Both the position numbers and the translations under genes were made by a program. The notes under the pieces were generated by a model, which made no database searches, was not told where the DNA came from, and was given only the letters and a program-made list of their open reading frames with translations. A stretch of 64,000 nt of DNA from a virus, in the IMG/VR virus record IMGVR_UViG_3300045988_174992; one strand, 5' to 3'. Shown in pieces: positions 8,608-57,127 of this stretch. Position 1 is the stretch's first letter. Each line of letters begins with the position of its first letter.

Positions 8608-9015
8608 TTAAAAATCTGGATTTGTACGTATACTGAATGATAGCGATTGAACTGGCATACTATCAGCTGGAATTCCCATGGTCTTTGCAAGTTCTTTGTT
8701 TAATTCTAGACAAGAATTCCATTGATTCTTATCTATTTCCTTTCTTCTATCAATATCCTTTTGCTTATATTCCTGACCGGTTTCATCATACATCCTGCAT
8801 AATGCATCATAGAATTTGTCAATTTCTTCTTTCTTAGAAATTTCACAACGATACATATAGTCAAAATATTTCTTATAGTTCTTCTGCCTCTTTATAGGAA
8901 ATGCCGCAGAAATAGTAAAATCAGTAAAATACTTATTGATAATCTCTCTATTCTTTGATATTTGGGCATTAGAATCAAATCCTGCTTCAGTAATATATTC
9001 AGTTAAGTTTTTCAT
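8608..9015 (-). CDS. hypothetical protein with CTS-like leader
   Basis: N-terminus MKNLTEYITE|AGF. 135 aa. Confidence 0.65.
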   Translation of the reverse strand: MKNLTEYITEAGFDSNAQISKNREIINKYFTDFTISAAFPIKRQKNYKKYFDYMYRCEISKKEEIDKFYDALCRMYDETGQEYKQKDIDRRKEIDKNQWNSCLELNKELAKTMGIPADSMPVQSLSFSIRTNPDF

Positions 9016-13457: not shown

Positions 13458-14711
13458 TTAGTTACTGCCATTCATCATATTCATGATGATTTCTTTCTTT
13501 TTTGGAGTCATATTTTCTAATATCTTATCAGTTGCATCTTTCAAAGTCATCTTTACTGTTGATAGAGAAACACCTTCATTTTCCGCTAATTCTGATACTG
13601 ACATGCTGTAAGGCATGCCAACACCATATCGTTTCTTCATCATTCTCTTTGCAGTAGGTGACAATGGTTCTAACAATTCATCTATAGCATTCCTCAAGCT
13701 AGATATACGTTCTTCTTCATCTAACTTATTGTCTTCAATGATGAATTCATCATTAGCCATCTTGCTTATATCATTATCATGATAGCAATCATCTGTATAA
13801 GGATTGATTCCATCTAATCTTATTATATCAGCTAATTTTGTTCCTTTACCAGCATTAGGTACTCTTACAACTTGACCTTGTCTTGATATATCTACTAATA
13901 TGCTTGCACGAATCCATTGAAATGCAACAGAAGCAAATACTGCAGTCTTTACATTCTTATCAACCCAAGCATAGAATTCTGATGTATTGTTGAATCCATC
14001 GACAGGTAATTTGCTCAATGTTTCATCAAGAAGCTTATCATAAGTAAATCCTTCTTTTATTATGCTCTTAGCTTTTTCATAGCATATAGGACTATCCTCA
14101 TCACATTCTAGCTTTATCTTTTGCTTGATAGAATTTCTCAGATTTGCTTTAGATGTATCAAATCTGTCGAATGCCGCTATCAATCCTTCATTACCAGATT
14201 GAATCAAATCATCAAATGGCATACCAAGATTCTGATAACGTTTAGCACAGTTTACAACTAATTTAAGATTGTTCTTTAAGAATATATCTCTATTTTCATC
14301 ACAGAATACTAAATCATCACATTCATTTTGTGGATGCTCTATATATTGCTTCTTTACTTCATTGAAGTATCTGTCTATATTGTTGTCAAAAGTCTTATCA
14401 GTATACTGCTTTACTAAACTTGCTCTTGCTTTTTTCTTAGCGGCAAGATATAATGTAGTTGCATCTGTTCTAGAAATAAATGGAGCTACTCTCATAGCTT
14501 CATCTATATAAGTACAAATGATATCCTTTTCATGACAATCCCTTATAGATCTTATTTCATCCTTCATTAACTGAATCCAATCTGCGAGGAAATTATCTTC
14601 TTCTATACCTAACCAAGGGCCAAATACAGGATATTTCTTTTTCAATGCTTTTACAAAGTCAACAATACGCTTTGTATTTGTTTTATTTATAGTTACTTTA
14701 ATACGTGGCAC
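13458..14711 (-). CDS. sigma-70-family RNA polymerase sigma factor (phage-encoded)
   Basis: Region 2: [49 protein letters not shown] is region 2.3/2.4-like. C-terminal HTH: [27 protein letters not shown] start. Confidence 0.8.
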
Positions 14712-30730: not shown

Positions 30731-30739
30731 AAATAATCT

Positions 30740-32070
30740 AACTTTTAGAAAATTTTTATGATATTTCTATTTTTATAAATAATTGAAATTAATTTATATA
30801 AAATACTATATTAAATTATAAGATATAAATTTATTCCTAATATATGAAACTTAAGCTAACACAACAAATTATCATAGGGCAGAAGCATAAGAATTATGCT
30901 TCACTTGATATACTGTGTTGGCTTTCTAAGAATCTTTATAACCAAGCTTTGTATCAGATAAGACAGCAATATAGTAAAGACAAGACTTATCTTGGTTATT
31001 CTAAGCTATATAGACTATTATATGATACAAAGCAACCAGATTATTTTGCTTTACCATATACTCAATGTAGCCAGCAAATACTACGTTTAGTTGATAAAAC
31101 ATATACTTCATTCTTTAAAGGAATAAAGTCAGCTAAGAATAAAGGAAAGAAAGTCAGACTTCCTAAGTATAAAGATAAAGAAAATGGAAGGTATGTATTT
31201 GTATATACCAGTCAATGTATCAAGGTAAAGGATGGCATTCTAAGACTTAAAGTGAACAAGACTGATTTCATTTACTTTAATTGTGACAAGGAAGATGTAT
31301 GCCAAGTAAGAATAGTACCTAAAGGAAATCATATAGTAGTAGAAATAATATATCAAGTAGAATATGAACTGAAGAAAGATAATGGAAATTATGCTAGCAT
31401 AGATCTTGGAATTGACAATATAGTTACTTTAGCTTCTAACTCAGCTCAATCCGTTCTTTATAATGGAAGACCATTGAAAGCAATAAATCACTTTTACAAC
31501 AAGAGAAAAGCTGAGTTGCAATCTAAGGTAAAGACTAAGTCAACTAAGAGAATAAAGCGTTTGAATGGTAAGAGAAACAGAAAGGTAAAAGACTTCATGC
31601 ATAAGCTAAGTCATGCCATAGTATGTTACATGGAATCAAACAACATAAATACATTGATTGTAGGAAAGAATGTTGGTTGGAAAGACAGTATCAAGCTAGG
31701 GCATGTTGTAAATCAAAACTTTGTTTCAATACCATACAATATGCTAATACAGATGCTAGAGTATAAGTGTAAGCTAAAAGGTATCACATTCATTGTGGTA
31801 AATGAAGCATATACTTCAAAGTGTAGTTTCATGGACAATGAAAATATTTGCAAGCACAAAGTATATGCTGGATCTAGAATAAGAAGAGGATTGTTTGTAA
31901 CAAAGAATGGACTTAGACTAAATGCAGATATAAATGGAGCTTTGAATATAATGGTACTAGGTTGTACTAAGATAAATGTAAAACGTGATGCTCTAGTAAT
32001 AGAGCCAGCGAATATGAGGTTTGTAGTGAACCCAATTAGATTGACTTTAAGTCAATAGAATGAAATTTTA
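30740..32070 (+). mobile_element. TnpB-only IS200/IS605-like element (boundaries approximate)
   Basis: tnpB sits alone between the minus-strand promoter (30702..30730) and the first fibre gene. No tnpA seen. Ends not defined. Confidence 0.35.
30844..32058 (+). CDS. tnpB: TnpB (IS200/IS605-family OrfB, RNA-guided RuvC-like nuclease)
   Basis: RuvC triad in order: ASIDLGIDN (D), VVNEAYTSKCS (E), LNADINGALNI (D). 404 aa. The TSKCSF...RRGLF subtype lacks the second CxxC pair. Confidence 0.85.
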   Translation: MKLKLTQQIIIGQKHKNYASLDILCWLSKNLYNQALYQIRQQYSKDKTYLGYSKLYRLLYDTKQPDYFALPYTQCSQQILRLVDKTYTSFFKGIKSAKNKGKKVRLPKYKDKENGRYVFVYTSQCIKVKDGILRLKVNKTDFIYFNCDKEDVCQVRIVPKGNHIVVEIIYQVEYELKKDNGNYASIDLGIDNIVTLASNSAQSVLYNGRPLKAINHFYNKRKAELQSKVKTKSTKRIKRLNGKRNRKVKDFMHKLSHAIVCYMESNNINTLIVGKNVGWKDSIKLGHVVNQNFVSIPYNMLIQMLEYKCKLKGITFIVVNEAYTSKCSFMDNENICKHKVYAGSRIRRGLFVTKNGLRLNADINGALNIMVLGCTKINVKRDALVIEPANMRFVVNPIRLTLSQ

Positions 32071-32137
32071 TTTGAAATTTATTTGTTTATGTTATTTTTA
32101 TATACATAAAATAAATAAATAAATAATAAAATACACT

Positions 32138-33229
32138 ATGACATTAACAAATTTGAATAAGCTTTTTGTTCGTGTTACAGAGGCTGGGCTTCGTGATGCA
32201 GTCATTAATAAATCTAAGGAGTCTAACAACAATAAGATTTACTTCTTAACAAAATCTCAAGAAATTGTTACTCAGGGTGTTGCTTATGGTCTTTCTACCG
32301 ATGTCCAGGCACAGATTGCTAACATCAAGTCTATCTTGAAGTCATTTGACAATAATGGTCATGGTACAGAGGATTCAGTAAAGTCTGCTATCGATGCTGT
32401 ACAGGCTGCTCTTGATGCATATAAAGCAGAAAATGATGCTAAGCGTGCTCTTCTTGTTAAGACAGTTGCTTACAATGCTGATACTAAGACTATCGACTTC
32501 ACATCAGAAAATGGTACAACAGTTCAGCATATCAATGCTAGTGATATCATTGGCAACCATGTTGTAAAGAGTTCTTCTTATGATGCATCTACTAATAAAT
32601 TGAAGCTCACATTTGGTGGTGCTAGTGAAGATGTTGATGTTGATATCGACCTTGGTCAGATGCTTGACATGAATGACGTCATCTCTGGTGATGTTGCACA
32701 CTTCACAGTTAACTATGCTGAGAAGAAACTTACTATCAAGCCAGTTACTGCAAAAGTTGCTAGTGATACAGTAGGTCTTGCTGATGCTAAGGATGTTAAG
32801 TCTTATGTTGATGCTGCTGTTAGCGGTGCACAGGATACTCTCCAGGCTGCTATCGATACTATCAATAGTAAGCTCAATATTATTCAAGGTGCAGAAAGCG
32901 TAGAGGGCTCTATCAATAAGGCATTGAAGGATGCTAAGGAATATGCAGATGGCCTTAATTCAGCTGCTAATGCTGCTATTACAAAGGAAATTTCTGATCG
33001 TCAGGCTGCTGACCAAGCATTGTATGGTGGTGTAATCCCTGCTGATGGTGCTTCTACTATCTCTGGTAATGCTACTAACATCGCTGCTTTAGTAGCTGCT
33101 CTTGAAACTGAGAAGACAAATCGTGAAGCTGCTGATAACGCTGAAAAGACTGCTCGTGAAGCTGCTATCAAGGAGATTACAGATGCATTAGCTGATCCTG
33201 CTACATTCTGGGAAGATTACACTTCTTAA
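32138..33229 (+). CDS. tail-fibre-like protein (Ala-rich, coiled-coil)
   Basis: Shares the N-terminal module (KLFVRV...KIYFLTKSQEIVTQGVAYG) with 34144.. and the LRR fibre genes. Ala/Asp-rich repeats. Confidence 0.5.
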   Translation: MTLTNLNKLFVRVTEAGLRDAVINKSKESNNNKIYFLTKSQEIVTQGVAYGLSTDVQAQIANIKSILKSFDNNGHGTEDSVKSAIDAVQAALDAYKAENDAKRALLVKTVAYNADTKTIDFTSENGTTVQHINASDIIGNHVVKSSSYDASTNKLKLTFGGASEDVDVDIDLGQMLDMNDVISGDVAHFTVNYAEKKLTIKPVTAKVASDTVGLADAKDVKSYVDAAVSGAQDTLQAAIDTINSKLNIIQGAESVEGSINKALKDAKEYADGLNSAANAAITKEISDRQAADQALYGGVIPADGASTISGNATNIAALVAALETEKTNREAADNAEKTAREAAIKEITDALADPATFWEDYTS

Positions 33230-33250
33230 TCTAAAATGATATGAATATGG

Positions 33251-33290
33251 TCAAGGTATCACAAGGATGACACCTTGATTTATTTTTAAT
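33251..33290 (+). terminator. rho-independent terminator
   Basis: TCAAGGT...ACCTTGA hairpin followed by TTTATTTTT. Confidence 0.55.
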
Positions 33291-35965: not shown

Positions 35966-36250
35966 ATGGCAAATACAACATTTCCTATTCATAAACTATT
36001 TAGAGTATATGAAACATTAGACCAGTTTGATGCAGAAGCAAATCACCCAGAAAATAAGATATGCTTCATCAAAGATAAGAGAATAATCTATGCTAATGGG
36101 GTTGAATATACCAATGAGCAGATGTATAATGATAATATAACTGATGATATCAAAGATGCTGCTAAATTCAAGACTGTTTATAATGCATTATTAGATGAAC
36201 TGAAGAACAGAAACTATATGGAGTTATCCAAAGATGGTGAAAATATTTAA
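35966..36250 (+). CDS. stand-alone fibre N-terminal adaptor module
   Basis: 94 aa. LFRVYETLDQFDAEANHPENKICFIKDKRIIYANGVEY matches the N-termini of the three LRR fibre genes but lacks an LRR part. Confidence 0.5.
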   Translation: MANTTFPIHKLFRVYETLDQFDAEANHPENKICFIKDKRIIYANGVEYTNEQMYNDNITDDIKDAAKFKTVYNALLDELKNRNYMELSKDGENI

Positions 36251-37433
36251 AAACTATGATACATTATCCCAATTCAATGATGAATCTATACACCCAGAAA
36301 ACAAGATATGTTTGATAAAAGATAAAGGTGTAATATATTCAAATGGTGTACAGTATTCACATTCTAAAATGCATATAATACAAGATATTGGAGATTCAGA
36401 TAACATAGTAGATAAGTTTAATGAATTGAGAAAAGGTTTATTAGAATCAAATCTAATGGCAGCTAGGACACCACATACTCTCATTTACTGGACAGGAGAT
36501 TCTAATACTATAGATATTAGTGGTACTACATATACAGCTGAACCAGATAAAGTAAACATAGATGGGGTAGAATACTACCAGTTAAAATTAGATAAAGATT
36601 TAAATAATAGTTTTAGTAATAATACTTTTACTAATTTAATATTTAAAGATGTTGATACAAGTAATGTTACTAATATGAATAATATGTTCGGTTATTGCAA
36701 TGCTCTTACTTCTTTGTATGTGTCTGAATTTGATACAAGTAATGTTACTAATATGGCTAATATGTTTTATTATTGCGAGGCTCTTACTTCTTTAGATGTA
36801 TCTAAATTTGATACAAGTAATGTTACTAATATGTTTAATATGTTTGGTAGATGCTGTGCTCTTACTTCTTTAGATGTATCTAAATTTGATACAAGTAAAG
36901 TTACTAATATGAGTAATATGTTCAATAATTGCAGTTCTCTTACTTCTTTGGATGTATCTAAATGGGATACAAGTAAAGTTACTGGTATGTATAGTATGTT
37001 TAATTATTGCATATCTATTACTTCTTTAGATGTATCTAAATTTGATACTAGTAAAGTTACTGATATGTCTAGTATGTTTCAACATTGCAGATTACTTACT
37101 TCTTTTGATGTGTCAAATTTTAATACAAGTAATGTTACTAATATGAATACTATGTTCTCTTCTTGCAGTGCTCTTACTTCTTTGGACGTATCTGGGTGGG
37201 ATACAAGTAATGTTATTTATATGGGTTATATGTTCAGGAATTGCTGGGCTCTTACTTCTTTGGACATATCTGGATGGGATACAAGTAATGTTACTAATAT
37301 GAATAGTATATTCTCTGGTTGCAGTTCTCTTAAAACAATAAGAATGGTAGGTTGTTCACAGACTACTATAGATAAGATAAAAGCACAACTATCTACAGAT
37401 GGTATAACTGGATGTACTATTGTAACAGAATAA
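36234..37433 (+). CDS. BspA/DUF285-type leucine-rich-repeat fibre (receptor-binding) protein, paralog 1
   Basis: About 10 repeats of F..C..LTSLDVS.FDTS.VTNM..MF. Conserved N-terminal module and a C-terminal module ending LKTIRMVGCSQTTIDKIKAQLSTDGITGCTIVTE. Confidence 0.7.
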   Translation: MVKIFKNYDTLSQFNDESIHPENKICLIKDKGVIYSNGVQYSHSKMHIIQDIGDSDNIVDKFNELRKGLLESNLMAARTPHTLIYWTGDSNTIDISGTTYTAEPDKVNIDGVEYYQLKLDKDLNNSFSNNTFTNLIFKDVDTSNVTNMNNMFGYCNALTSLYVSEFDTSNVTNMANMFYYCEALTSLDVSKFDTSNVTNMFNMFGRCCALTSLDVSKFDTSKVTNMSNMFNNCSSLTSLDVSKWDTSKVTGMYSMFNYCISITSLDVSKFDTSKVTDMSSMFQHCRLLTSFDVSNFNTSNVTNMNTMFSSCSALTSLDVSGWDTSNVIYMGYMFRNCWALTSLDISGWDTSNVTNMNSIFSGCSSLKTIRMVGCSQTTIDKIKAQLSTDGITGCTIVTE

Positions 37434-37470
37434 ATATAACAGAATAAAATTTTATATATAAAAAGAAATC

Positions 37471-38217
37471 ATGGCTAAATTATTTAGAAATTACAATACA
37501 TTGGTGGAATATGAAGCAGACACAAATAAACCTGTAAACACAGTTTGTTTCATTAAAGATGCAAAGGTCATCTATGTAGATGGCATACGATATTCATATA
37601 AGCAACTTGACTATCTACCACCTGCTATTAATGAAGCAGAAGCATTAGAATATATGGGTAAGATTATTAAGAATGCCCAGGAAGTAGGATTGATTGGTAT
37701 ACCAGTACCTAAACTAGTACCTGGTATATACTGGACAGGAGATTCTAATATTATAAGTATTAGTGGTACAGATTATACAGCTGAATCTGATAATATAACT
37801 ATAGATGGTGTAGAATACTATCAGTTAAAATTGGATAAAGATTTAGATAATGATTTTTACAACTTTAATTATAATTATTTTACTAATTTAATATTTAAAG
37901 ATGTTGATACAAGTAATGTTACTAATATGAGTAATATGTTCGAAGGTTGTTGGGATCTTACTTCTTTGGATGTTAGTAATTTTGATACAAGTAATGTTAC
38001 TGATATAGGATTTATGTTTAGTGATTGTGGTTCTCTTACTTCTTTAGATATGTCTGGATGGGATATAAGTAACGCCATCAAAATGAACAAAATGCTCACT
38101 GGTTGTAGTGCTCTTAAAACTATCAGAATGGTAGGTTGTTCACAGACTACTATAGATAAGATAAAAGCACAATTATCTACTGATGGTATAACTGGTTGCA
38201 CTATTGTAACAGAATAA
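37471..38217 (+). CDS. BspA/DUF285-type LRR fibre protein, paralog 2
   Basis: Same N- and C-terminal modules, with about 3 LRR units. Confidence 0.7.
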   Translation: MAKLFRNYNTLVEYEADTNKPVNTVCFIKDAKVIYVDGIRYSYKQLDYLPPAINEAEALEYMGKIIKNAQEVGLIGIPVPKLVPGIYWTGDSNIISISGTDYTAESDNITIDGVEYYQLKLDKDLDNDFYNFNYNYFTNLIFKDVDTSNVTNMSNMFEGCWDLTSLDVSNFDTSNVTDIGFMFSDCGSLTSLDMSGWDISNAIKMNKMLTGCSALKTIRMVGCSQTTIDKIKAQLSTDGITGCTIVTE

Positions 38218-38250
38218 ATTATAACAGAATAATTATAACAGAATAAAATC

Positions 38251-39225
38251 ATGCCGAAAATATTTAGAAACTACAATACATTATCTCAATTCAATACTGA
38301 ATCCACACATCCAGAAAACAAGATATGTTTCATTAAAGATAATGGAGTAATATATTCAAATGGTGTACAGTATTCACCTTATAAAATGGACACTATAGCT
38401 AATATAGAAGATTCAGATAACATAGTAGATAAGTTTAATGAATTGAGAAAAGGTTTATTAGAATCAAATCTAATGGAAGCTAGAACACTACATACTGTCA
38501 TATACTGGACTGGAGATTCTAATACTATAAACATTAGTGGTACTACATATACAGCTGAACTAGATAAAATAAATATAGATGGTGTAGTATACTATCAGTT
38601 AAAATTGTATAAAGATTTAGATAATAATTTTTATAAATTTAGTAATAATACTTTTGCTAATTTAATATTTAAAGATGTTGATACAAGTAAAGTAACTAAT
38701 ATGAATAATATGTTCCATTATTGCAATGCTCTTACTTCTTTGGATGTATCTAAATTTGATACTAGTAAAGTTACTAACATGTCATGGATGTTTGAATATT
38801 GCATGTCTCTTACTTCTTTAGATTTGAGTACATGGGATACTAGTAAGGTTACTAATATGAATGCTATGTTCCTTTATTGTAGTGCTCTTACTTCTTTGGA
38901 TTTGAGTGGATTTGATACTAGTAAAGTTACTGATATGAGTTTTATGTTCAGTAATTGCAGTTCTCTTACTTCTTTGGATTTGAGTGGATTTGATACTAGT
39001 AAAGTTACTGATATGAGTTTTATGTTCAGTAATTGCAGTTCTCTTACTTCTTTGGATTTGAGTGGATGGGATACAAGTAATGTTAATAATATGCGTAATA
39101 TGTTCAGTGGTTGTAGTGCTCTTAAAACAATCAGAATGGTAGGTTGTTTGCAGACTACTATAGATAAGATAAAAGCACAACTATCTAGTAATGGTATAAC
39201 TGGATGCACTATTGTAACAGAATAA
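38251..39225 (+). CDS. BspA/DUF285-type LRR fibre protein, paralog 3
   Basis: Same modules, about 6 LRR units including a perfect 78-bp tandem duplication. Confidence 0.7.
   Translation: MPKIFRNYNTLSQFNTESTHPENKICFIKDNGVIYSNGVQYSPYKMDTIANIEDSDNIVDKFNELRKGLLESNLMEARTLHTVIYWTGDSNTINISGTTYTAELDKINIDGVVYYQLKLYKDLDNNFYKFSNNTFANLIFKDVDTSKVTNMNNMFHYCNALTSLDVSKFDTSKVTNMSWMFEYCMSLTSLDLSTWDTSKVTNMNAMFLYCSALTSLDLSGFDTSKVTDMSFMFSNCSSLTSLDLSGFDTSKVTDMSFMFSNCSSLTSLDLSGWDTSNVNNMRNMFSGCSALKTIRMVGCLQTTIDKIKAQLSSNGITGCTIVTE
38887..39042 (+). repeat. perfect 2 x 78-bp tandem duplication (one LRR unit)
   Basis: 38887..38964 and 38965..39042 read identically, each encoding LTSLDLSGFDTSKVTDMSFMFSNCSS. Confidence 0.85.
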
Positions 39226-40348: not shown

Positions 40349-40879
40349 TTATCCTAAGTTAACTCTATTTGATGTACCAATCTTGTTTACATAGATTTCA
40401 ATGTAAGTCATTCTACGGTTAGTACCGAAATCACCACCTTCATCCATGTTGTTGATGTAGACTAATTCATCTTTCATACCATTGATAAAGAACATTTCTC
40501 TCAAGGTTGAACCAGTCATTACATTATCATCATATTCTTCTGAATCACCATCCAAAATCATATAACCATTCTTTCTTGCGATATTATCTAAGTAAGTGAA
40601 ACCTACATAGTCACCACCTTCATCACCATAATTCAATGAAATTTTCCATTCATTCAAATTAGAGTTATGCAATATTGAAATGATATCTTTGATAGTGAAA
40701 CAAGAATCATCTTCTTTAATCACAAGAACAGTGTCATAATTCTTGTGGTTTACAATCTTAACTCCAAATGAAGTATTGTATTTATCATTAACATTCTCAA
40801 TATTGCTCTTGATAATTTCAGCTTTTGTCATAACTTCTGTTCTTAATATCACCGAAGTGATGTTATTAATCATAATCAT
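40349..40879 (-). CDS. hypothetical promoter-proximal protein
   Basis: Starts ATGATTATGATTAAT after promoter 40897..40925. Confidence 0.6.
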   Translation of the reverse strand: MIMINNITSVILRTEVMTKAEIIKSNIENVNDKYNTSFGVKIVNHKNYDTVLVIKEDDSCFTIKDIISILHNSNLNEWKISLNYGDEGGDYVGFTYLDNIARKNGYMILDGDSEEYDDNVMTGSTLREMFFINGMKDELVYINNMDEGGDFGTNRRMTYIEIYVNKIGTSNRVNLG

Positions 40880-42708: not shown

Positions 42709-43347
42709 TTATTTGTCTTTAATAAGTTCACTCTTATTGTTATCAAAAACCATATCTTTTTCTTCAATTTCCAACTTTATTTTATCATCCATATATTTTA
42801 CAATATTGCTTGATCTAGTTCTCTTGAAGATATCCCATAAGTCATATAGCAATCCATCATCTGATGTGTTTGTAACATCAAATTCTGACCAATCAACAAT
42901 GAACCTTAGATTTTCCAATGCATAATTCTTAAGATCATCTTGTTCACCTTTAAAGTTGTCATCTAATGATTTGTCAAAGCCAAATGTACAATGCAATCCA
43001 TCTTTTGCATCTTCTTTCTTTTCAAACTCAAATCTAGAATCTATAATATTATCAGCATTAGCACCAAAATATTCTTTAGCTAAATCATCATCAGATGGCA
43101 TGCTTTCAAGAAGCAAATCAGATATATATTGATTGATATCATCATCTGTATAGTCTTCTGGTACTTCTATTACAAAAATACCTTTTCGGTTTTCTGGATC
43201 TTTCACCTTCCAAATAGCTTCAAAGTCATTCAATCTGATAGTCTGATCTCTATCTTCATTTAGAGCAAAAGGAGAGTTCGTTGCCAAGCTCTCCTTCATA
43301 TATTCTACTAACTGTTTCATAGTTTTATCCAATTCTAATTTGTTCAT
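42709..43347 (-). CDS. hypothetical acidic protein
   Basis: 212-aa ORF. Confidence 0.6.
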   Translation of the reverse strand: MNKLELDKTMKQLVEYMKESLATNSPFALNEDRDQTIRLNDFEAIWKVKDPENRKGIFVIEVPEDYTDDDINQYISDLLLESMPSDDDLAKEYFGANADNIIDSRFEFEKKEDAKDGLHCTFGFDKSLDDNFKGEQDDLKNYALENLRFIVDWSEFDVTNTSDDGLLYDLWDIFKRTRSSNIVKYMDDKIKLEIEEKDMVFDNNKSELIKDK

Positions 43348-43634
43348 GATAATGGTCCTTCATGACCTTTCATTCTGCCATTTTTCTTCAAACAAGCATC
43401 AAATACTTTTGATGAACTTGCTTTTGATTTAGCAGATTCCCAATCTTCTCTATTTACAAATATAGATTCAGGATATTTCTTGTAATCTGTATACCATCTT
43501 ATATCATATTTATCTACAAGTCTCCATACATCTATCATCTCATTGAGTTCAAGAACATTTTCATTATCTGTAGGATCCATTTTTGTAGGAGCATCACATT
43601 TCTTCTCCAACAGCATACATACTAAACTTCTCAT
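43344..43634 (-). CDS. hypothetical protein
   Basis: 96-aa ORF with a 4-nt overlap with the downstream gene. Confidence 0.55.
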   Translation of the reverse strand: MRSLVCMLLEKKCDAPTKMDPTDNENVLELNEMIDVWRLVDKYDIRWYTDYKKYPESIFVNREDWESAKSKASSSKVFDACLKKNGRMKGHEGPLS

Positions 43635-44321
43635 TTATAAATCTTTATGGTTTGGATTCATTGCCTTACAGATAGCATTGATAGCAGCTTTATCATCTTC
43701 TGATAAATACTTTAAGCAATCATCATCATGTCTACCACCTTTTTCTTGCATCAAATATACTGGAATGAAATTATCTGTATCTATAATATAGAAAAATTCC
43801 ACACGACCCGTATTAGTAAATAATTCTACAAAAGTAAATGGCTTCTTTGCTTCTAAATCATTTATCTTTTCAGCTATTCTACTGAATTTATTTGATATCT
43901 TTCTCCAATTACCTTCTGATATGATAGATTGTCGTAAGAAGATTTGTCTATCTCCACTTTTATTGGATGCAACATAAACATTAGAGAAGAATTCCAAATC
44001 ATCATTTTGTATTTCAAGAGCTGTACCTCTGCTAAGATCTCTCAAAATTGCACCACCTCTCCAATTCTTAGCTAATGCTTTAAGTCTAACAATAGATTTC
44101 TTATCGACATTATAGTAGATGTTGAATTTCTTTTCTTCATCATCTGGATTTTCGTTCATCAATTCTTTATCAATATTATCTTTAAATGCCTGCAAGAACT
44201 TTTCTGCTCGAGGATCTCCAAGTTTCTTTGCTTTCTTAGCAGCATTCAAATATGTTTCACCTTTCAATTCAAAAACATATTCATCAAGTTTTTCGTTTGG
44301 ATATTCCGAAATGCTAATCAT
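43635..44321 (-). CDS. hypothetical protein (weak CTS-like leader)
   Basis: MISISEYPNEKLDEYVFE|LKG. 228 aa. Confidence 0.6.
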   Translation of the reverse strand: MISISEYPNEKLDEYVFELKGETYLNAAKKAKKLGDPRAEKFLQAFKDNIDKELMNENPDDEEKKFNIYYNVDKKSIVRLKALAKNWRGGAILRDLSRGTALEIQNDDLEFFSNVYVASNKSGDRQIFLRQSIISEGNWRKISNKFSRIAEKINDLEAKKPFTFVELFTNTGRVEFFYIIDTDNFIPVYLMQEKGGRHDDDCLKYLSEDDKAAINAICKAMNPNHKDL

Positions 44322-44622
44322 TTTTTCCTTTATTTAATGCATTTATAGTGTCTATAATTTTCTTAAGAATATAGATATTGTCATAGTTGTCTGGTAATCC
44401 TTTTGCATCATCATTCATCATATCAGTCAATGCATTGAAGTTGATTCCACTGTCATCTACCAGTTTCTTGAAACCTTCTATATCTTTCTGGTTTGGTGCT
44501 TCTTTCATGAATGCGTCTAATGAAGATAATTCTATTCCTTTAGACCAATTGTCAAATTTCCATTGAATGTTGTCACCATCCAATTCTTCTTTCATGACTA
44601 CATAGCTCTTAAGATTAATCAT
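44314..44622 (-). CDS. hypothetical protein (weak CTS-like leader)
   Basis: MINLKSYVVMKEE. 102 aa. Confidence 0.55.
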   Translation of the reverse strand: MINLKSYVVMKEELDGDNIQWKFDNWSKGIELSSLDAFMKEAPNQKDIEGFKKLVDDSGINFNALTDMMNDDAKGLPDNYDNIYILKKIIDTINALNKGKND

Positions 44623-44990
44623 CGCTTTTTACCAGTATTTTTGAACCAATCATACAACTGTTCTGCAAAGTCAACTTTTTTAAAATTGAATGCAACCTTC
44701 ATAGTATCATAACTAGAATCATGAATTTCTATATACAGATATTCTTTTCCACTTATTGTTTCTGTATGAGCATCAAATGAAATTTCTTTGCTTTGACTTG
44801 AAGTGATCCAATCTTCTTTATTAGGACCACCATCACTGTACATATTCAGATTAGATACTAATTCTGATATGGCTTTGCTTTTTGACAACTTGGATAATTC
44901 TATATACTTGTCAATGAATTGCTTGAGAGTAATCTTCATTGTATATCTTTCAATGCTACTCTCAAGCAAATATTCAGATAAACTTTTCAT
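44619..44990 (-). CDS. hypothetical protein with CTS-like leader
   Basis: MKSLSEYLLE|SSI. 123 aa. Confidence 0.65.
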   Translation of the reverse strand: MKSLSEYLLESSIERYTMKITLKQFIDKYIELSKLSKSKAISELVSNLNMYSDGGPNKEDWITSSQSKEISFDAHTETISGKEYLYIEIHDSSYDTMKVAFNFKKVDFAEQLYDWFKNTGKKR

Positions 44991-44991
44991 C

Positions 44992-45372
44992 TTACTTACA
45001 ATTCTTTATGAATTTCTTAGCAGCTGATGTCAATCCAATTTTCTCTATCTTGAATGTAAACCAATCTTTATCATCTACTTTCTTGAAGTATATGAATAAT
45101 GAAATGAAGCTACCAAAGTTGTCCTCATACTTGAATTCAAACTTTTCATTCAAATTCTTCTTAATATATTCTACCATCTGTTCAGGTTTCTTGAACTTTG
45201 GATTACCATCATTGAATTCAAAAGTATCAGATGCAATAGAGCTTACAAGATTGTCTACTGTCAACTTCTTTGAATCTTTCTTTATTAAAGCATCAAGAAA
45301 ATCTTGCATTGTTGAAATGCAAGAATATTCTTTTGCTTTAGATTCTGAAATATATTCTGTTAATGATTTCAT
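44992..45372 (-). CDS. hypothetical protein with CTS-like leader
   Basis: MKSLTEYISE|SKA. 126 aa. Confidence 0.65.
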   Translation of the reverse strand: MKSLTEYISESKAKEYSCISTMQDFLDALIKKDSKKLTVDNLVSSIASDTFEFNDGNPKFKKPEQMVEYIKKNLNEKFEFKYEDNFGSFISLFIYFKKVDDKDWFTFKIEKIGLTSAAKKFIKNCK

Positions 45373-45378
45373 AATATT

Positions 45379-46578
45379 TTACTCACGATATGCAGTATCA
45401 TTGTCATTTATACGAAATACTGATGGATCTGCATTTCTCTGATCTTCATCATTCAAACACTCTTTATAGAGAGAATACAACTCAGCAAATGCTTTATTCA
45501 ACTCTGGAGTATTCTTAATGTACTGAAGAACTTTGAAATTAGAATTAGTAACTTCTGATGGATTCTTCATACCATACTTAGCCATAATCTGCTTTGCTTT
45601 AAGCTTTTCATGACCAAACAATCCATTCATACTATAGAATACATCAAGCTGCTTTTCAGTAAATTTCTTCTCAAGCATCTTAACAATCATCTTCCAAAGC
45701 TTAGCAATATCTTGCTGGTCGAGTGAAGCATCTGCATCTTCTTTAGAGTCAACCTTATCAAAGATTCCCTTGCCTTCATCTCCACCACCAATAGGTGATT
45801 CACCGGATACTGAAGTCTGCTTTGTATTTCTACCTGTATCTTTACGTTCCTTATTCTGAACAGAAACTGGAATACGTACTAAGTGTGAAGTATTCTTGAT
45901 ATTTTCAAGGATTACAATGCGAATCAAATAGCTAGCATAACTCAAGAAAGTGAATGCCTTACGCTTCTTCATTTCATCTTTCAATTCTCCAGCCATCTCT
46001 TCTGCTTCAGCATTCTTTCCTCCACGCTTCTTAGCAGTCTCTTCAGAAGACTTACCATATTGGTTCATTGCAATTGTAAGACCTTCCATACCGAAAGCAA
46101 ACAAATCGTCAAGAGAGAAGCTAGACTTTCCATTGAATCCACGAGCAATCTTCCAAACCAATGGAGTATACTTCTTAGCTACAGCATCACGACCCTTCTT
46201 AGTCTTCAAATCAAGCAATATCTCATCTGGTGAAATCTCATTCTTGATAATTGCGTTGAATTGCTCTTCAGTCTGAAATACTGGTACTTCAAGAAGACGG
46301 TGAGCCTTAGCAAGTGTTCCAATCCACTTGTACAATTCCTGCAACTTAGGATCTTTTGGTTTACCCTTACCATAGAAATTTTGCAATGAGCCAAGCTCCT
46401 TCATATATGTAGCATTGTTTACAATCAACCAATTGATGATTTCTTTAGCCTCAACAGAAATGAACTTGTCTGCTGTAGTAAGATATGTCTTAAGCTTAGC
46501 AGATGGAATGAAATCCAAAGTATCATTCTGTACATCAAGTGACTTAGCTTCTGCAACAAATTCTGATAATTTCTTCAT
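45379..46578 (-). CDS. sigma-70-family protein with CTS-like leader
   Basis: MKKLSEFVAE|AKS. Region-2-like LVWKIARGF..DDLFAFGMEGLTIAMNQYG. SYASYLIRIVILENI..HLVRIPVSV. Region-4-like C-terminus QLDVFYSMNGLFGHEKLKAKQIMAKYGM. Confidence 0.65.
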   Translation of the reverse strand: MKKLSEFVAEAKSLDVQNDTLDFIPSAKLKTYLTTADKFISVEAKEIINWLIVNNATYMKELGSLQNFYGKGKPKDPKLQELYKWIGTLAKAHRLLEVPVFQTEEQFNAIIKNEISPDEILLDLKTKKGRDAVAKKYTPLVWKIARGFNGKSSFSLDDLFAFGMEGLTIAMNQYGKSSEETAKKRGGKNAEAEEMAGELKDEMKKRKAFTFLSYASYLIRIVILENIKNTSHLVRIPVSVQNKERKDTGRNTKQTSVSGESPIGGGDEGKGIFDKVDSKEDADASLDQQDIAKLWKMIVKMLEKKFTEKQLDVFYSMNGLFGHEKLKAKQIMAKYGMKNPSEVTNSNFKVLQYIKNTPELNKAFAELYSLYKECLNDEDQRNADPSVFRINDNDTAYRE

Positions 46579-46708: not shown

Positions 46709-46737
46709 AATATAGAACAATAGGATAAAATTTCAAA
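46709..46737 (-). promoter_or_regulatory. phage promoter, TTTGAAAT / TTCTATATT class
   Basis: Reverse complement reads TTTGAAAT-N12-TTCTATATT, about 130 nt upstream of the start of 45379..46578. Confidence 0.55.
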
Positions 46738-50459: not shown

Positions 50460-50705
50460 ATGAAAAAATTAAGTGAATTGGTAAATGAAAAGCTATCTGA
50501 TATAGAAGGTAAATGGGATCCACCAGAAGGATTGTTTGCAAAGAACAATCCTAGAGAGATAGCTCAAATACTTTTAGATGCTTCAGATTCAGAAGGTCAA
50601 GCAATGAAAAGACTTGTATTCTATATGAACAGAGCAGGAGAAGATTGTCCTAATAAAACAGTTTTGAATAAAGTAAAAGATATATTGAGAAGCAATACAA
50701 AATGA
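50460..50705 (+). CDS. hypothetical protein with CTS-like leader
   Basis: MKKLSELVNE|KLS. 81 aa. Confidence 0.6.
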   Translation: MKKLSELVNEKLSDIEGKWDPPEGLFAKNNPREIAQILLDASDSEGQAMKRLVFYMNRAGEDCPNKTVLNKVKDILRSNTK

Positions 50706-51573: not shown

Positions 51574-51822
51574 TTATTTCATCAAATCAATAAGGTACTT
51601 CTTAGCTTCCTTATGAGTGATTTCATTAATATCAACATCACCAACAATGTCAATAACACCTCTAAGATCATTTCTGAATGTTTCTACAGTATATTCTTTC
51701 TTAGGATCTGAGTACTCATCATAAAATCCAAGCTTCTGCTTAGGATCCATACCTGCTAATCTGTTATATGCTTGAGAAAGCTTTATTGATTTTCCTTCAA
51801 GAATTTCTACTAATGTCTTCAT
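51574..51822 (-). CDS. hypothetical protein with CTS-like leader
   Basis: MKTLVEILE|GKS. 82 aa. Confidence 0.55.
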   Translation of the reverse strand: MKTLVEILEGKSIKLSQAYNRLAGMDPKQKLGFYDEYSDPKKEYTVETFRNDLRGVIDIVGDVDINEITHKEAKKYLIDLMK

Positions 51823-52152: not shown

Positions 52153-52545
52153 TTAGTCTTCTGGTTCATCAAGAGTATCAGTTCCAAGAATGTAATCTGT
52201 AGAACTCAGAACTAAGGCACAATACTTCATAATGTCATAGTCATGATGATTCTTATCTAATACATCTACTAACTGATTTAAGAAAACTTTCTGATTAGTG
52301 ATATATTCAAACAATGTATCTGCGATATCAAGATACTGTGGAGTGTTCTCCTCTTTGTAGCCCATGTTTACATAAGACTTATAGATCTTACAAACAATCT
52401 CATAAACTACACTCTTGAGAGCTTCATTTGTCAAGTTCTTCATGTTGTGCTCTAACTGGTTGTGTACCTGTAAGAAACGGAATGCGATAGAAGTTGGAGC
52501 ACTCAAGTTGAAATTGTTTACTGTATTTGAATTCATCATAATCAT
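52153..52545 (-). CDS. hypothetical promoter-proximal protein
   Basis: Starts ATGATTATGATG after the tandem promoters. Confidence 0.6.
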   Translation of the reverse strand: MIMMNSNTVNNFNLSAPTSIAFRFLQVHNQLEHNMKNLTNEALKSVVYEIVCKIYKSYVNMGYKEENTPQYLDIADTLFEYITNQKVFLNQLVDVLDKNHHDYDIMKYCALVLSSTDYILGTDTLDEPED

Positions 52546-52581: not shown

Positions 52582-52610
52582 AATATAGAAAAGTTGAATT
52601 AAAATTCAAA
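52582..52610 (-). promoter_or_regulatory. phage promoter (proximal of a tandem pair)
   Basis: Reverse complement reads TTTGAATT-N12-TTCTATATT. Confidence 0.5.
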
Positions 52611-52637
52611 CTTTTATTTCCTGTTAACTTTAGTTAA

Positions 52638-52666
52638 CATATAGAACAATCTTCTAAAATTTCAAA
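52638..52666 (-). promoter_or_regulatory. phage promoter (distal of a tandem pair)
   Basis: Reverse complement reads TTTGAAAT-N12-TTCTATATG. Confidence 0.5.
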
Positions 52667-53225
52667 ATATTGGCAAAAAAGTTTGGCCTAAATTGAATTT
52701 TATTGTATTAAGAAGCATTCTTGTATGTTGATATTGCTCTTCTTTAATATCAAACAATGAAATGCAATTTGACTCATCATCAAACAATTCTTGGATAGAC
52801 TTCCAGATAGCCGTTGCATGGTCAAAAGCCAAATCATCTTTCCTTAGACCTACCAATGATACCCATTGTACTGTTGATGCATCATCTTTTGCTTTTATCA
52901 AACCTTCAAAATCATCATGAACTGTATCAGCATATACAATAGAAATGCATCTTTCTCGTGGATCTCTTCCTTCTTTAGTAAGAGCACAAACTTGAAACAT
53001 ATAACTCAAGCTCAAGTTTGTCTCTTCCTTAAGTTCACGAATAGCGGCACTCATAGCAGATCTGTCTTCTGGATCTAAGAATCCACCAGGAAGAGCTAGC
53101 TTTCCTTTGAATGGTTCATTCTTACGAGTGATGAGCAACACCTTTGGATTATTTGGATCCTTTAAATTGAAAATCACGTTATCTACTGTAACTGCATAAT
53201 GTACGTATTCGTATGTATAACTCAT
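52662..53225 (-). CDS. Nudix hydrolase (ADP-ribose pyrophosphatase-like)
   Basis: Nudix box GGFLDPEDRSAMSAAIRELKEETNL. The track start at 53261 lies inside the promoter -10 box, so ATG 53225 (MSYTYEY) is preferred. Confidence 0.75.
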   Translation of the reverse strand: MSYTYEYVHYAVTVDNVIFNLKDPNNPKVLLITRKNEPFKGKLALPGGFLDPEDRSAMSAAIRELKEETNLSLSYMFQVCALTKEGRDPRERCISIVYADTVHDDFEGLIKAKDDASTVQWVSLVGLRKDDLAFDHATAIWKSIQELFDDESNCISLFDIKEEQYQHTRMLLNTIKFNLGQTFLPIF

Positions 53226-53249
53226 AATTATTATTTTTTGTTCGAATAT

Positions 53250-53278
53250 AATATAGAACAATTTTTAAAAATTTCAAA
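53250..53278 (-). promoter_or_regulatory. phage promoter, TTTGAAAT / TTCTATATT class
   Basis: Reverse complement reads TTTGAAAT-N12-TTCTATATT. Confidence 0.6.
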
Positions 53279-53800: not shown

Positions 53801-54421
53801 ATGAGAATGTTAGGTTGTAAAGCATCAAAGATAGATGCTCATGATAAGAAGATCACCAAGAATTTGACTAATAAGATTCCTGATGAATATAGCTTTGTAA
53901 ATTATCTTAGTCCAATAACAGATCAAGGTTCAACAAACATGTGTGTCACCCATGCTCTTGCATGCTTTTTGAATTGGATTACTGATATGAAGTTGAAGAC
54001 TTCAAGGAAAGACAACAATATTGATTTGAAACAGATATATAATGCAAGATCAGATAAGGATCATGATAATGGCATGTCTATCAAAGAAGCATTGTCATTG
54101 GCAAGAACACATGGTATAAAATCAAATGTTGGAACTATAAAAATCCATGACTTTGCAATGATAGGAAGTGAACAAATCTTGAAGCAAGCAATATTATGCA
54201 ATGGTCCAGTATTGATAGCGTTACCAGTATATGACAGTTCAAGAAATGATTTTTGGAACGGAGCAGAATTAGAAGGAGGTCATTGTGTTGCTGTTGTTGG
54301 ATATGATAAGAATGGTTTTATTATAAGAAACAGCTGGGGTAGAAGTTATGGAAGAAATGGATATTGGACTTTACCTTATACTGAATTCAATAAGATAAAG
54401 GAGATTTGGACATGCATATAA
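53801..54421 (+). CDS. papain-family (C1) cysteine peptidase
   Basis: QGSTNMC (Gln six residues before the catalytic Cys, as in papain), GGHCVAVVGYD (His), IIRNSWG..GYW (Asn-Ser-Trp). Confidence 0.8.
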   Translation: MRMLGCKASKIDAHDKKITKNLTNKIPDEYSFVNYLSPITDQGSTNMCVTHALACFLNWITDMKLKTSRKDNNIDLKQIYNARSDKDHDNGMSIKEALSLARTHGIKSNVGTIKIHDFAMIGSEQILKQAILCNGPVLIALPVYDSSRNDFWNGAELEGGHCVAVVGYDKNGFIIRNSWGRSYGRNGYWTLPYTEFNKIKEIWTCI

Positions 54422-55486: not shown

Positions 55487-57127
55487 TTATGCACTTGCAC
55501 TTCCTTGCATATCTATTATCTTTCTAGCTGTATCATTTATCATAAGATGTTGGCTTGTAGGATACTGTTGCAGTAATTCTGATACATTATCTATATAAGA
55601 ATCAAAAAGCTTGAAGTTAGTAACTGTACCTGGTATACCATTTATCATTACATCTTGCTTTTCATCTTCTACCATTTCTACATTCCATTTTGCTACTTTA
55701 TGTGCTGTCAAATTATTCAAGTCAAACTTGTAATGTGCTGGTTGCAACTTATATAGAGGGATATTTTCATTATAAGAATATTCCGAAACTCCTAATTCTA
55801 CTACATTCCTAGATTTAGACCATCTTAAATATATGAAATAATGATTGTCAGTAATATTGGCATCTTGTTTAGGTAAGTATACAGAACAATCTTCTACATT
55901 ATCTAAACTTACTTTGATTCTTCTGTTTGTCATTTTCAATCTAAGTATGATATGACCTATCTTTATGAGTTCAGAATCATAATCATACATTCCATTCAAA
56001 CCAACAATAATGCTTGTACTACCTTCTTCACCACAATATTTTCTTTGATATACTATCTTATTCTTAAGTCTGTATAGTGATGATGGATCAAACTTGTAAC
56101 ATCTGTCACTTATCAATGTTCCTCTTTGATAGATATTTGTATCTACAAAGTTTGTACCTTCTGATGTAACATACTTTCGGCAAGAATCGGATTCATATAC
56201 AGGGTACATGCCATTTCCAGAATATGTTGGAGCTTCTGTTGTTTCTTCTCCACTATCTAATCCTTCTTTATCTCCAAACAAATCTTCATACTTTGTCTTT
56301 ACTAAGCTATCTATAGTAGAATCAAAATCTCCTAAGTCAACAGAACCCTTTTCTTGATATTTTACTAATGCCAATTTGAATGTAGTATTGTTCCACATCA
56401 ATGAACCATTCTTCTCTTCGTATGCTTCATTTACCATCCACATCCTTTTCATCATTGGAATATATATCAAATCACCTTCCATTGGCTGTGCAGTAATTCC
56501 AAAAGCCGTAGCAAACATTGTCTTGCTTATCTCGGTTTCCCAATCAGTTTGCCAATCTAATCCAAAATCAGAAAATTCTGGTTTGCTGCTTGGCATCTGA
56601 CCTTCATTTACTATAAGCTTTATCTGCTTTACTGATTCTACATTCATGAGAGTATACTCTTTAAACGTGATATCTTTAGAACCAGAATCAGGCTTAAGTT
56701 TGAAGTAGTATATAGGTATACCAATCATACAAGCAACGCTATCAGATAATGATTGCTGCAAAGCTATAGCTGAAGTAAGACCAGCATAAGGATTGTATTT
56801 GTTAGATGATTCACAAGATGGTGATGAGATGCTTGAAGCAATAGAAGTAGTATAGTCTACACTTTCATCACCATCTTTTACATCATTAACAACACCATTT
56901 ACTTTAAACTTTATGTAGAAATCAGATGGACTATCAACCAGTATTTTTTCTGCATCACCATAGGAAGCAAAACATGACCAATTGATACCATCATAACTCC
57001 ACGATACCTCTAAGCATGATGTATCATATTTTACATCATCACAACCAAGTATAGATATTGATGACATATCATTAATAGCCATTGTCAACAATACCTCTTG
57101 AGCAGGCATACAACTATTGAAATCCAT
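55487..57127 (-). CDS. large hypothetical protein, probable virion/baseplate component
   Basis: 546-aa ORF directly downstream of the cell-wall hydrolase gene. Assigned from context only. Confidence 0.4.
   Translation of the reverse strand: MDFNSCMPAQEVLLTMAINDMSSISILGCDDVKYDTSCLEVSWSYDGINWSCFASYGDAEKILVDSPSDFYIKFKVNGVVNDVKDGDESVDYTTSIASSISSPSCESSNKYNPYAGLTSAIALQQSLSDSVACMIGIPIYYFKLKPDSGSKDITFKEYTLMNVESVKQIKLIVNEGQMPSSKPEFSDFGLDWQTDWETEISKTMFATAFGITAQPMEGDLIYIPMMKRMWMVNEAYEEKNGSLMWNNTTFKLALVKYQEKGSVDLGDFDSTIDSLVKTKYEDLFGDKEGLDSGEETTEAPTYSGNGMYPVYESDSCRKYVTSEGTNFVDTNIYQRGTLISDRCYKFDPSSLYRLKNKIVYQRKYCGEEGSTSIIVGLNGMYDYDSELIKIGHIILRLKMTNRRIKVSLDNVEDCSVYLPKQDANITDNHYFIYLRWSKSRNVVELGVSEYSYNENIPLYKLQPAHYKFDLNNLTAHKVAKWNVEMVEDEKQDVMINGIPGTVTNFKLFDSYIDNVSELLQQYPTSQHLMINDTARKIIDMQGSASA

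Follow-up and report, generated by a model that had tools for sequence, protein, structure and literature searches.

Phages are known to inject two kinds of transcription effector: whole polymerases, namely the virion RNA polymerase of N4 (vRNAP) and the virion RNA polymerases (RNAPs) of phiKZ and AR9, and T4 Alt, by means of which a T4-type head already delivers a protein that reprograms the host RNAP. In T4, the capsid-targeting sequence (CTS) MKTYQEFIAE (PMC8442874) is by itself enough for the packaging of foreign proteins; its residues 4 and 7 serve targeting, and residues 8 and 10 serve processing by gp21 (PMC9026906). Sigma factors, some of them RpoD-like, are encoded by all jumbo phages of group 2, the RNAP-less, T4-like group (PMC7824862), and host RNAP is their presumed target (PMC7824862; PMC13282480). 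Like the classic SPO1 gp28 and T4 gp55, these proteins belong to the sigma-70 family and are expected to redirect the host core RNAP; their synthesis is described as following infection, and no capsid-targeting leader has been reported on any of them. Here we analyze a 64-kb stretch of viral DNA (64,000 nucleotides, IMG/VR record IMGVR_UViG_3300045988_174992; hereafter, the window) and in particular the gene at 45379..46578 on its minus strand, sigma1, which encodes a divergent, 399-aa protein of the sigma-70 family with an ATG start and the N-terminal sequence MKKLSEFVAE. Sigma1 combines features of two known kinds, those of phage sigma factors and those of T4-type CTS cargo. An earlier note on this DNA had singled out the same open reading frame (ORF), which does exist and spans 399 aa, although the note missed that it lies on the minus strand; the author of the note knew of no described case of an injected sigma factor, and our search of the literature returned no report of a virion-borne, injected or CTS-fused sigma factor. 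No virion proteome was found for the window phage clade or for its nearest cultured relatives.

The sequence strings previously quoted as sigma regions are found in sigma1, DDLFAFGMEGLTIAMNQYG at aa 157-175 and SYASYLIRIVILENI..HLVRIPVSV at aa 213-240. As a single sequence, sigma1 matches Pfam Sigma70_r2 below the cutoff (E = 0.022, 15 bits against a cutoff of 24) and PHROG 351, 'RNA polymerase sigma factor', with E = 1.5e-11; no match was obtained to the Pfam region-4 families. Homologues number 228 in the metagenome protein collection, and a family profile built from an alignment of 29 sigma1 homologues (alignment A1, 42-88% identity) matched RpoS, SigA, RpoD and FliA chains in the PDB with E-values down to 2e-7. 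Fourteen of these 29 family members match Sigma70_r2 singly, the best of them at 2e-6. An alignment of hidden Markov models (HMMs) places sigma regions 2.1-2.2 at aa 135-181 (46036..46176, minus strand; aligned to RpoS 94-139, with the Pfam Sigma70_r2 match at aa 135-176) and regions 2.3-2.4 at aa 209-242 (45853..45954, minus strand; aligned to RpoS 143-176 and to SigA), where FTFLSYASYLIRIVILENIKNTSHLVRIPVS aligns with the FSTYATWWIRQ..TIRLPIH type of sequence. Region 2 is split by a charged insertion of about 27 aa (aa 179-207), which is modeled with a low predicted local distance difference test score (pLDDT). Ahead of region 2 lies a conserved helical N-terminal domain (aa 13-130; 46189..46542, minus strand; pLDDT 83-90; conserved in A1) that is restricted to the long forms of the sigma family and missing from short forms of about 210-250 aa. 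Toward the C-terminus, at aa ~290-382 (45433..45711, minus strand), the HMM and the structure model place the end of a region 3.2-like linker and a region-4-like helical domain; the third HMM segment, profile positions 258-343 aligned to RpoS 224-304, is weak by itself. The additional N-terminal domain of about 120 aa and the insertion in region 2 set sigma1 apart from the sigma factors of the group 2 jumbo phages and from the classic phage sigma factors.

The AlphaFold2 model of sigma1 (mean pLDDT 70) contains a confident helical N-domain at aa 20-130, a disordered linker at aa 252-284 followed by helices at aa 282-382, and, at aa 2-11, a leader helix that is detached from the fold and has a pLDDT of about 40. 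When the model was compared with the PDB using Foldseek, the best 50 matches listed were all sigma chains or sigma-containing RNAP complexes (E from 3e-6), and the alignments to SigA extended over about 400 columns; the TM-scores are low (0.2-0.3) because the sigma1 domains are placed freely. With the profile matches, the Sigma70_r2 hits within the family and the Foldseek results all agreeing with the assignment made in the earlier note, we regard the membership of sigma1 in the sigma-70 family as close to certain, and the protein would likely act as an initiation factor. In an alignment made by eye, and in the E. coli sigma70 numbering, Y430 is kept in sigma1, and W433, W434, Q437 and T440 are replaced by Y, L, I and L, respectively. 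Since some of the residues for -10 recognition (W434, Q437, T440) are altered, the promoter specificity of sigma1 should differ from that of primary sigma factors. The second sigma-70-family gene of the window, sigma2 (13458..14711, minus strand; 417 aa), is nearer the consensus (Sigma70_r2 at 3.5e-7, a weak region 4, PHROG 351 at 2e-25) and has the same split region 2 architecture; as had been pointed out, it has no leader, its N-terminus scoring -12.5 in the scoring scheme described next. When deposited relatives of sigma1 were sought by tblastn among 50,697 phage records, no match was obtained at 1e-5, and a threshold relaxed to E = 5 brought up noise only.

The leader of sigma1, encoded by codons 1-10 (46549..46578, minus strand), resembles the T4 CTS, with predicted cleavage after Glu10 and before Ala11; a sigma1 protein starting at Ala11 would yield AKSLDVQNDTLDFIPSAK as its semi-tryptic N-terminal peptide. 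The occurrence of the leader was assessed with a position-specific scoring matrix (PSSM) of 11 columns, whose training set consisted solely of the N-termini from 212 long sigma-family proteins. In the window, 6 of the 95 gene starts score at least 12 bits and the next best scores -1.2, a bimodal distribution, and none of the 434 internal Met positions reaches 6 bits. Sigma1 itself has the window maximum, 24.3 bits, and the leader is not special to it, being found also on the genes directly downstream and elsewhere. An 81-aa protein (50460..50705, plus strand) carries MKKLSELVNE (22.1 bits) ahead of a DUF3175 domain (Pfam, 6.8e-7) that begins at aa 23, so that the tag precedes the domain. The remaining four are a 135-aa protein (8608..9015, minus strand; MKNLTEYITE, 17.3 bits), a 123-aa protein (44619..44990, minus strand; MKSLSEYLLE, 12.6 bits), an 82-aa protein with a leader-like start (51574..51822, minus strand; MKTLVEILEG, 12.5 bits) and a 126-aa protein encoded 6 nt downstream of sigma1 (44992..45372, minus strand; MKSLTEYISE, 12.3 bits). 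Further genes of the same cluster (42709..44321, minus strand) have weaker, leader-like starts that fall below the PSSM threshold, making them marginal members: MISISEYPNE in a 228-aa protein and MKQLVEYMKE, from an internal start at 43320, in a 203-aa protein. By Pfam and PHROGs, the tagged window proteins other than sigma1 and the DUF3175 protein are orphans.

Past the tag, no similarity among the tagged proteins was found. Paralogy was considered as the origin of the common N-terminus and rejected, there being no similarity beyond residue 12. The codons of the tag differ synonymously from one tagged gene to another, and the DNA upstream is unrelated. What is held in common is a pattern of hydrophobic residues at positions 4, 7 and 8, Glu at 9 or 10, and then Ala or Ser. 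The leader is thus almost certainly a modular functional tag, shared at the level of protein.

The positions conserved in the leader (4, 7, 8 and 10) coincide with the key residues of the T4 CTS. The PSSM derived from the sigma family was applied to 150 kb of the T4 genome (256 ORFs), where it put IPIII and IPII, which both start with MKTYQEFIAEA.., in a tie at ranks 1-2 with 13.3 bits each. Rank 3 was taken by gp61.1 (MKTFKEFIKED.., 11.9 bits) and rank 4 by e.6, a 197-aa ORF (MNTLKKIVEFI.., 2.7 bits). IPI, whose propeptide is longer, came fifth in the first 100 kb with -0.1 bits, and gp24 (MAKINELLRES, 0.7 bits) was at the top of the 100-150 kb segment; the gp24 propeptide is a short one of 10-20 residues (PMC5694885). 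The likeness to the T4 targeting sequence, noticed earlier by eye, is therefore upheld statistically, a matrix trained on sigma factors alone having ranked IPIII and IPII as the top two of 256 T4 ORFs. The two leaders can be written as MKTYQEFIAE|A in IPII and IPIII and MKKLSEFVAE|A in sigma1, both being N-terminal tags of about ten residues, of the kind also found in IPI, Alt and gp24. In T4 as in the window phage, the tag ends in [LIV]-x-Glu and is carried by unrelated proteins encoded in part in a strain-variable cluster (PMC9026906, PMC8442874, PMC5694885). Whether the tag of the window phage is equivalent to the T4 CTS and would lead to encapsidation is, on these similarities, close to an even call. 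The T4 gp61.1 protein is 54 aa long (L045:18966-19130, minus strand) and starts with MKTFKEFIKEDMV.

Among the sigma homologues, conservation of the leader reaches much further than that of the remaining sequence. The 29 aligned sequences have an MKKLSQxVxEAK-like start in which Glu10 is at least 90% conserved, and by inspection all 29 have the tag end [ILVF]-x-Glu. When 1.84 billion representative proteins were searched with the profile, 1324 relatives were obtained at E up to 0.001, with 111 below 1e-30, and the presence of the leader in remote relatives was judged on the best 150 listed representatives. Among these, the long forms (350-490 aa, in two length classes) are nearly all tagged, starting with M-[KR]-x-[FLI]-[ST]-x-[IFL]-[ILV]-x-E or ..I-L-E-[SAG], even beside a diverged N-domain. 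The short forms, of about 210-250 aa and consisting of the sigma core only, are mostly devoid of the tag; in two of them it stands directly before the sigma core.

Sequence profiles also recognize the machinery of a T4-type head in the same phage, whose structural genes are recognizable only in this way, at their distance from T4. The gene at 55487..57127 (minus strand) encodes a T4 gp14-like neck protein (Pfam T4_neck-protein, 1.6e-4; PHROG 679, 'head closure Hc2', 2.5e-14), a homologue of gp13 lies just outside the window, and a deoxynucleoside monophosphate (dNMP) kinase gene sits beside structural-looking genes, as it does in T4. When head genes were sought from the end of the window that carries the neck gene, using IMG/VR and PHROG scans and phmmer, the region yielded large unknown proteins, an RNA ligase and two further tagged genes, and nothing else; the exact protein of the last complete gene of the window is not on record. 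A cluster of abundant major capsid proteins (MCPs), P0314, was dropped, as it belongs to a different clade. The head module was reached from the annotated capsid protein of Chryseobacterium phage MA9V-2, through its homologues and a scan of IMG/VR with their alignment, which did not return the window phage clade directly and did return a relative, the 43.6-kb contig L076, having 20 genes in common with the window at 37-79% identity. A search with the L076 capsid protein then led to contigs UViG_3300045988_171958 and _172530, which encode sigma1 (98% and 96% identity, respectively) and have neck-region genes 93% identical to those of the window's contig.

Contig _171958 encodes a prohead protease of 525 aa (L152:8331-9908; Pfam Peptidase_S77, 5.8e-11, 42.7 bits against a cutoff of 27), which matches T4 gp21 by phmmer at 9.4e-9, and directly downstream of it a Gp23-family capsid protein of 606 aa (L152:9995-11815; Gp23, 2e-30). 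Contig _172530 likewise encodes, upstream of the MCP gene, a protein of 525 aa that shares the N-terminal sequence of the S77 protease. Both genes sit outside the 64-kb window; their pairing, an S77 (gp21-type) protease with an adjoining gp23-type capsid protein, is that of T4. The protease starts with MAKKCLVYE-TLG, where T4 gp21 has MNEPQLLIE-TWG; ITE-5, LTE-18 and HA[MI][FH]E-42-A are conserved in the capsid protein, and the proteases of other related clades have LLILE or FIIE motifs at their start. Because such motifs are present at the N-termini of proteases and capsid proteins, a gp21-type enzyme that prefers [LIV]-x-Glu is a reasonable expectation. The S77 domain of the protease is N-terminal and is followed by about 300 aa that have weak, sub-threshold matches to unrelated families. 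We take this C-terminal part to be a fused scaffold, unlike the arrangement in T4; the protease is 640-815 aa long in related clades and 1207 aa in MA9V-2. As a separate observation, the window also encodes a papain-like Peptidase_C1 protein of 206 aa (53801-54421, plus strand), which is unusual for a T4-like phage and is conserved in all related loci examined. Its gene adjoins one for a NUDIX hydrolase (52662-53261), assigned through the Pfam NUDIX matches of the corresponding genes in related loci. The C1 peptidase might process the tagged proteins in place of the prohead protease.

The phage itself is a human-gut jumbo phage, of about 245-295 kb as judged from IMG/VR contigs, and a distant relative of T4. 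The window, with a G+C content of 30%, includes genes for the T4-type neck protein, RtcB, a UvsW-like helicase, a lysozyme-domain protein, a TnpB element and a partial family B DNA polymerase (430 aa, DNA_pol_B), and a recorded copy of its sequence is the 276,731-bp human-gut metagenome contig k127_125124 (ENA ERZ919512), with sister contigs of 282-297 kb in ENA and 195-294 kb in IMG/VR. The phage is common and widespread, since the index of the public assembly collection lists the exact sigma1 protein in 196 blocks. By the neck protein, the closest cultured relatives (23-28% identity) are Bacteroidota jumbo phages, namely Chryseobacterium phages MA9V-1 and MA9V-2 and Tenacibaculum phages pT24, PTm1 and PTm5, together with Sphingomonas phage PAU; the local gene order of MA9V-2 matches that of the window phage. 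Shine-Dalgarno cores precede 6 of the 95 window genes, which is the background rate (4.7%) and fits a Bacteroidota-like host; a Firmicutes host was rejected because of this background rate. The host is probably within Bacteroidota. A host call based on TnpB was rejected as well, the 95%-identical matches in two 'uncultured Romboutsia' metagenome-assembled genomes being mis-binned fragments of the window phage.

Sigma1 stands at the head of a cluster of tagged genes. Downstream of it, with gaps of 0-6 nt, follow the tagged genes for 126-aa and 123-aa proteins and then the more weakly tagged ones. In phages whose sigma is 45-48% identical, tagged small genes again come directly after the sigma gene, with MKCLNRYIKEAL, MKNLNLYIKEAL and MKSLLQYILEEY. 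The content of the cluster varies even where sigma1 is identical (126/123/102/229 aa, 106/102/229 aa or 126/102 aa), the 123-aa gene at 44619..44990 being present or absent among such strains. The internal-protein loci of T4 are likewise strain-variable (PMC9026906), and the sigma1 cluster, by analogy, resembles them in its behavior. Beyond the right end of the window, in contig UViG_3300045988_170375, a nucleoside diphosphate kinase (NDK; L013:14000-14440) has the leader MKSLTNYICEAM, with the NDK domain starting at aa 19. It is preceded by a tagged 170-aa gene, and both come after the gp13 neck gene and the gene for a 1161-aa protein on the same strand, so that these two tagged genes lie in a structural-looking string. 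Unlike the T4 internal proteins, then, the candidate cargo would comprise a 46-kDa sigma factor and, among the others, enzymes such as NDK.

A promoter motif, TTTGAAAT-N12-14-TTCTATATT, recurs in the window, with 9 exact copies (0.01 expected), 17 copies at up to one mismatch, all on the minus strand (0 in shuffles), and 21 minus-strand plus 2 plus-strand copies at up to two mismatches (1.2 expected); the figure of about 19 copies given before is a fair count. The element has an extended form, TTCTATATT-N5-(C)GT. For the T4-type late promoter TATAAATA, the window shows no enrichment, with 20 copies where 15 are expected. An exact copy, TTTGAAAT-N12-TTCTATATT, is located at 46709..46737 (minus strand) and precedes the start codon of sigma1 by about 130 nt; sigma1 is therefore in the regulon that it is proposed to switch on, which is compatible with a feed-forward loop and with an ordinary early gene alike.

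In connection with this promoter class, a second recurrent N-terminus, MIM(I/M)xN..., was observed on small minus-strand genes, namely 17403-17756 (MIMIMNTNK), 19761-20105 (MIMMNNLNK), 22220-22576 (MIMITNNTN), 24383-25180 (MIMNYAEVK), 40349-40879 (MIMINNITS) and 52153-52545 (MIMMNSNTV). Some of these genes start about 20-50 nt downstream of TTTGAAAT..TTCTATATT copies, a spacing that points to very short 5' leaders and, perhaps, to a function common to these start regions. Two near-identical segments on the minus strand, 20141-20225 and 52582-52666, each hold a tandem promoter pair, TTTGAATTTTAATTCAACTTTTCTATATT and TTTGAAATTTTAGAAGATTGTTCTATATG, and a 33-bp stretch is 100% identical between them and in related contigs; just before the ATG of the MIM genes near these segments stands a conserved TGTAGAACAATTTAATTTTT.

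Taken together, the tag, the head genes and the promoters can be assembled into a model of virion delivery. Late in infection, the tag would dock sigma1 on a prohead core built by the gp21-type protease, the C-terminal part of which is taken as the scaffold. The protease would cut after [ILV]-x-Glu, and mature sigma1, starting at Ala11, would be kept in the head and ejected with the DNA. In the new cell, sigma1 would bind the host core RNAP and direct it to phage promoters, for which the TTTGAAAT-N12-14-TTCTATATT class, with one copy driving the sigma1 gene, offers the obvious candidates. We hold this model as a whole, with sigma1 as a CTS-tagged, packaged, cleaved and injected initiation factor, tentatively and at somewhat less than an even chance. 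That capsid-loaded sigma1, co-injected with the genome, would capture host core RNAP for phage-specific promoters from the onset of infection is possible, with doubt prevailing, and that it would read the abundant promoter class on arrival is unlikely.

A number of observations weigh against virion delivery. Packaging, cleavage, ejection and promoter specificity are all properties that we infer for sigma1 from its sequence. To our knowledge, T4 gp61.1 is not a reported head protein, and its CTS-like start means that the motif alone is no proof of packaging. Tagged genes are rare in the head modules of other related clades, making up 3 of 1511 ORFs across 80 loci; a concentration of tagged genes in those modules was accordingly rejected, and a CTS-type role cannot be generalized from the relatives. 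The tag is found on NDK, an enzyme expected in the cytoplasm, and, in weaker form, on an RNA-ligase-like protein and a 516-aa protein for which a cytoplasmic role is expected; a tagged DUF285 protein in another related phage is not an obvious head cargo. The mature tagged proteins are mildly basic, with isoelectric points of 6.7-8.9 (window median 5.8), whereas the T4 internal proteins are very basic. Sigma1 and its tagged neighbors lie behind a promoter class that precedes many small, early-looking genes, a placement that fits an ordinary early or middle sigma factor. The class can moreover be read as TTGAAA-N16-18-TATATT, with a TTTG-N19-21-TA spacing equal to that of the Bacteroidota primary-sigma (-33/-7) promoter type. 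Host RNAP may therefore read these promoters unaided, and, given the host-type spacing, an injected sigma factor would not be required for early transcription.

These points lead to the main rival explanation, a doubtful one in our estimate and still a serious contender, in which sigma1 is a conventional intracellular early or middle phage sigma factor like SPO1 gp28 or T4 gp55. It would be made from a host-recognized promoter and would redirect host RNAP to middle or late genes, and the tag would serve docking to a common partner, timed turnover or the assembly of a cytoplasmic complex. The promoter copy upstream of sigma1, the early-looking genes that the class mostly precedes, the host-type promoter geometry and the tags on NDK and the DUF285 protein all suit this explanation, and reviews place the sigma factors of RNAP-less jumbo phages on host RNAP with packaging not mentioned (PMC7824862; PMC13282480). 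It leaves unexplained, however, why a matrix built on the tag picks IPII and IPIII from the T4 proteome, and why the tag has a constant [ILV]-x-E end in a genome that has a gp21-type protease; furthermore, a tagged protein present during head assembly would be expected inside the head, since the CTS suffices in T4 (PMC9026906). A common N-terminus devoid of a function of its own, produced by AT-rich codon bias, optimization of translation starts in a host that makes no use of Shine-Dalgarno sequences, or recent duplication of 5' ends, could be imagined in a genome of 30% G+C, in which Shine-Dalgarno motifs are at background (6/95) and start-proximal sequence may matter for translation. This we find hardly believable, however, given the bimodal scores, the lack of the motif at internal Met positions, the synonymous codon differences within the tag next to upstream DNA that is not conserved, the retention of the tag at remote sigma similarity and the cross-recognition of IPII and IPIII of T4, a coliphage of 35% G+C.

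The two other alternatives turn on what sigma1 does to transcription. The tag could be a pro-sequence for activation or regulation outside the capsid, making sigma1 a 'pro-sigma' whose cleavage would be due to the prohead protease, ahead of assembly, or to a different phage protease such as the C1 peptidase (53801..54421), with the tagged proteins turned on or off jointly at a fixed time. Pro-sigmaE and pro-sigmaK of Bacillus subtilis are established cleavage-activated sigma factors, with pro-sequences of about 20-29 residues that are membrane-linked and cut by SpoIIGA or SpoIVFB. They have in common with the proposed sigma1 an N-terminal extension removed by a dedicated protease, and the conserved [ILV]-x-E-[AS] end of the tag and the conservation of the Peptidase_C1 gene in the related loci are in keeping with such a scheme. 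The tag, however, has no sequence similarity to the known pro-sequences, which are not found on unrelated proteins, whereas its presence on unrelated orphans and enzymes suggests sorting over activity control. A stretch of only ten residues, modeled as a detached helix of low confidence, would probably not block sigma function by itself, and homologues of SpoIIGA or SpoIVFB were not seen among the annotated genes, although no search was aimed at them. We consider cleavage activation quite improbable. Sigma1 might instead be a sigma-like decoy or inhibitor, injected or not, that occupies host core RNAP or a host regulator, as could be argued from the promoter-melting and -10 recognition residues, which in the by-eye alignment are only partly kept, from the divergent recognition helix of region 4.2 and from the failure of the single sequence to pass Pfam thresholds. 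Such divergence is typical of phage sigma factors, however; the sigma2-linker-sigma4 architecture is conserved in hundreds of homologues, and an information-rich, phage-specific promoter class needs a reader. A decoy role therefore strikes us as very improbable.

Other features of the window concern its remaining gene content. The TnpB (IS605 OrfB) gene at 30844-32058 (plus strand) adjoins DNA polymerase genes, and its flanks (28691-33283) are rearranged or inverted relative to related contigs; in Chryseobacterium phage MA9V-2, a TnpB gene likewise sits between two pieces of a DNA polymerase gene. No tRNA genes were found in the 64-kb window. Its RtcB gene (22672-23979) and RNA-ligase-like gene (4789-5991), along with further RNA-ligase genes in related loci (L013:15304-16299; L043:6542-7309), point to an investment in tRNA repair. 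A run of genes at 35966-39225 (plus strand) has the common N-terminus M[AVP]K[IL]F[KR]NY[ND]TL.., and the counterparts in related loci have DUF285 or leucine-rich-repeat (BspA-like) bodies. The number and length of these genes vary strongly among strains with identical sigma1, and they look like exchangeable receptor-binding or fiber proteins with a common anchor.

If sigma1 is indeed delivered by the virion, it would represent a third strategy beside the injected polymerases of N4 and phiKZ and RNAP-modifying enzymes such as T4 Alt. As with the virion RNAPs of N4 and of phiKZ and AR9, a particle-borne protein would start or bias early transcription before phage gene expression; those are complete, host-independent polymerases, whereas sigma1 would be a small specificity subunit that needs the host core enzyme, and the phage would control transcription specificity at this stage by delivering that subunit alone. 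Within this phage clade, the leader would then identify an entire group of cargo proteins delivered by injection, and the finding would bear on the infection of Bacteroidota, hosts with unusual promoters and an unusual primary sigma factor. The N-terminal pattern M-K-x-[LF]-x-x-[FYI]-[IVL]-x-E-[AS] is a simple rule with which injected cargo can be predicted from sequence in jumbo phages of the gut that are uncultured. Regardless of the role of the sigma factor, the T4 CTS motif and its gp21-type protease may span a very deep split within the T4 superfamily.

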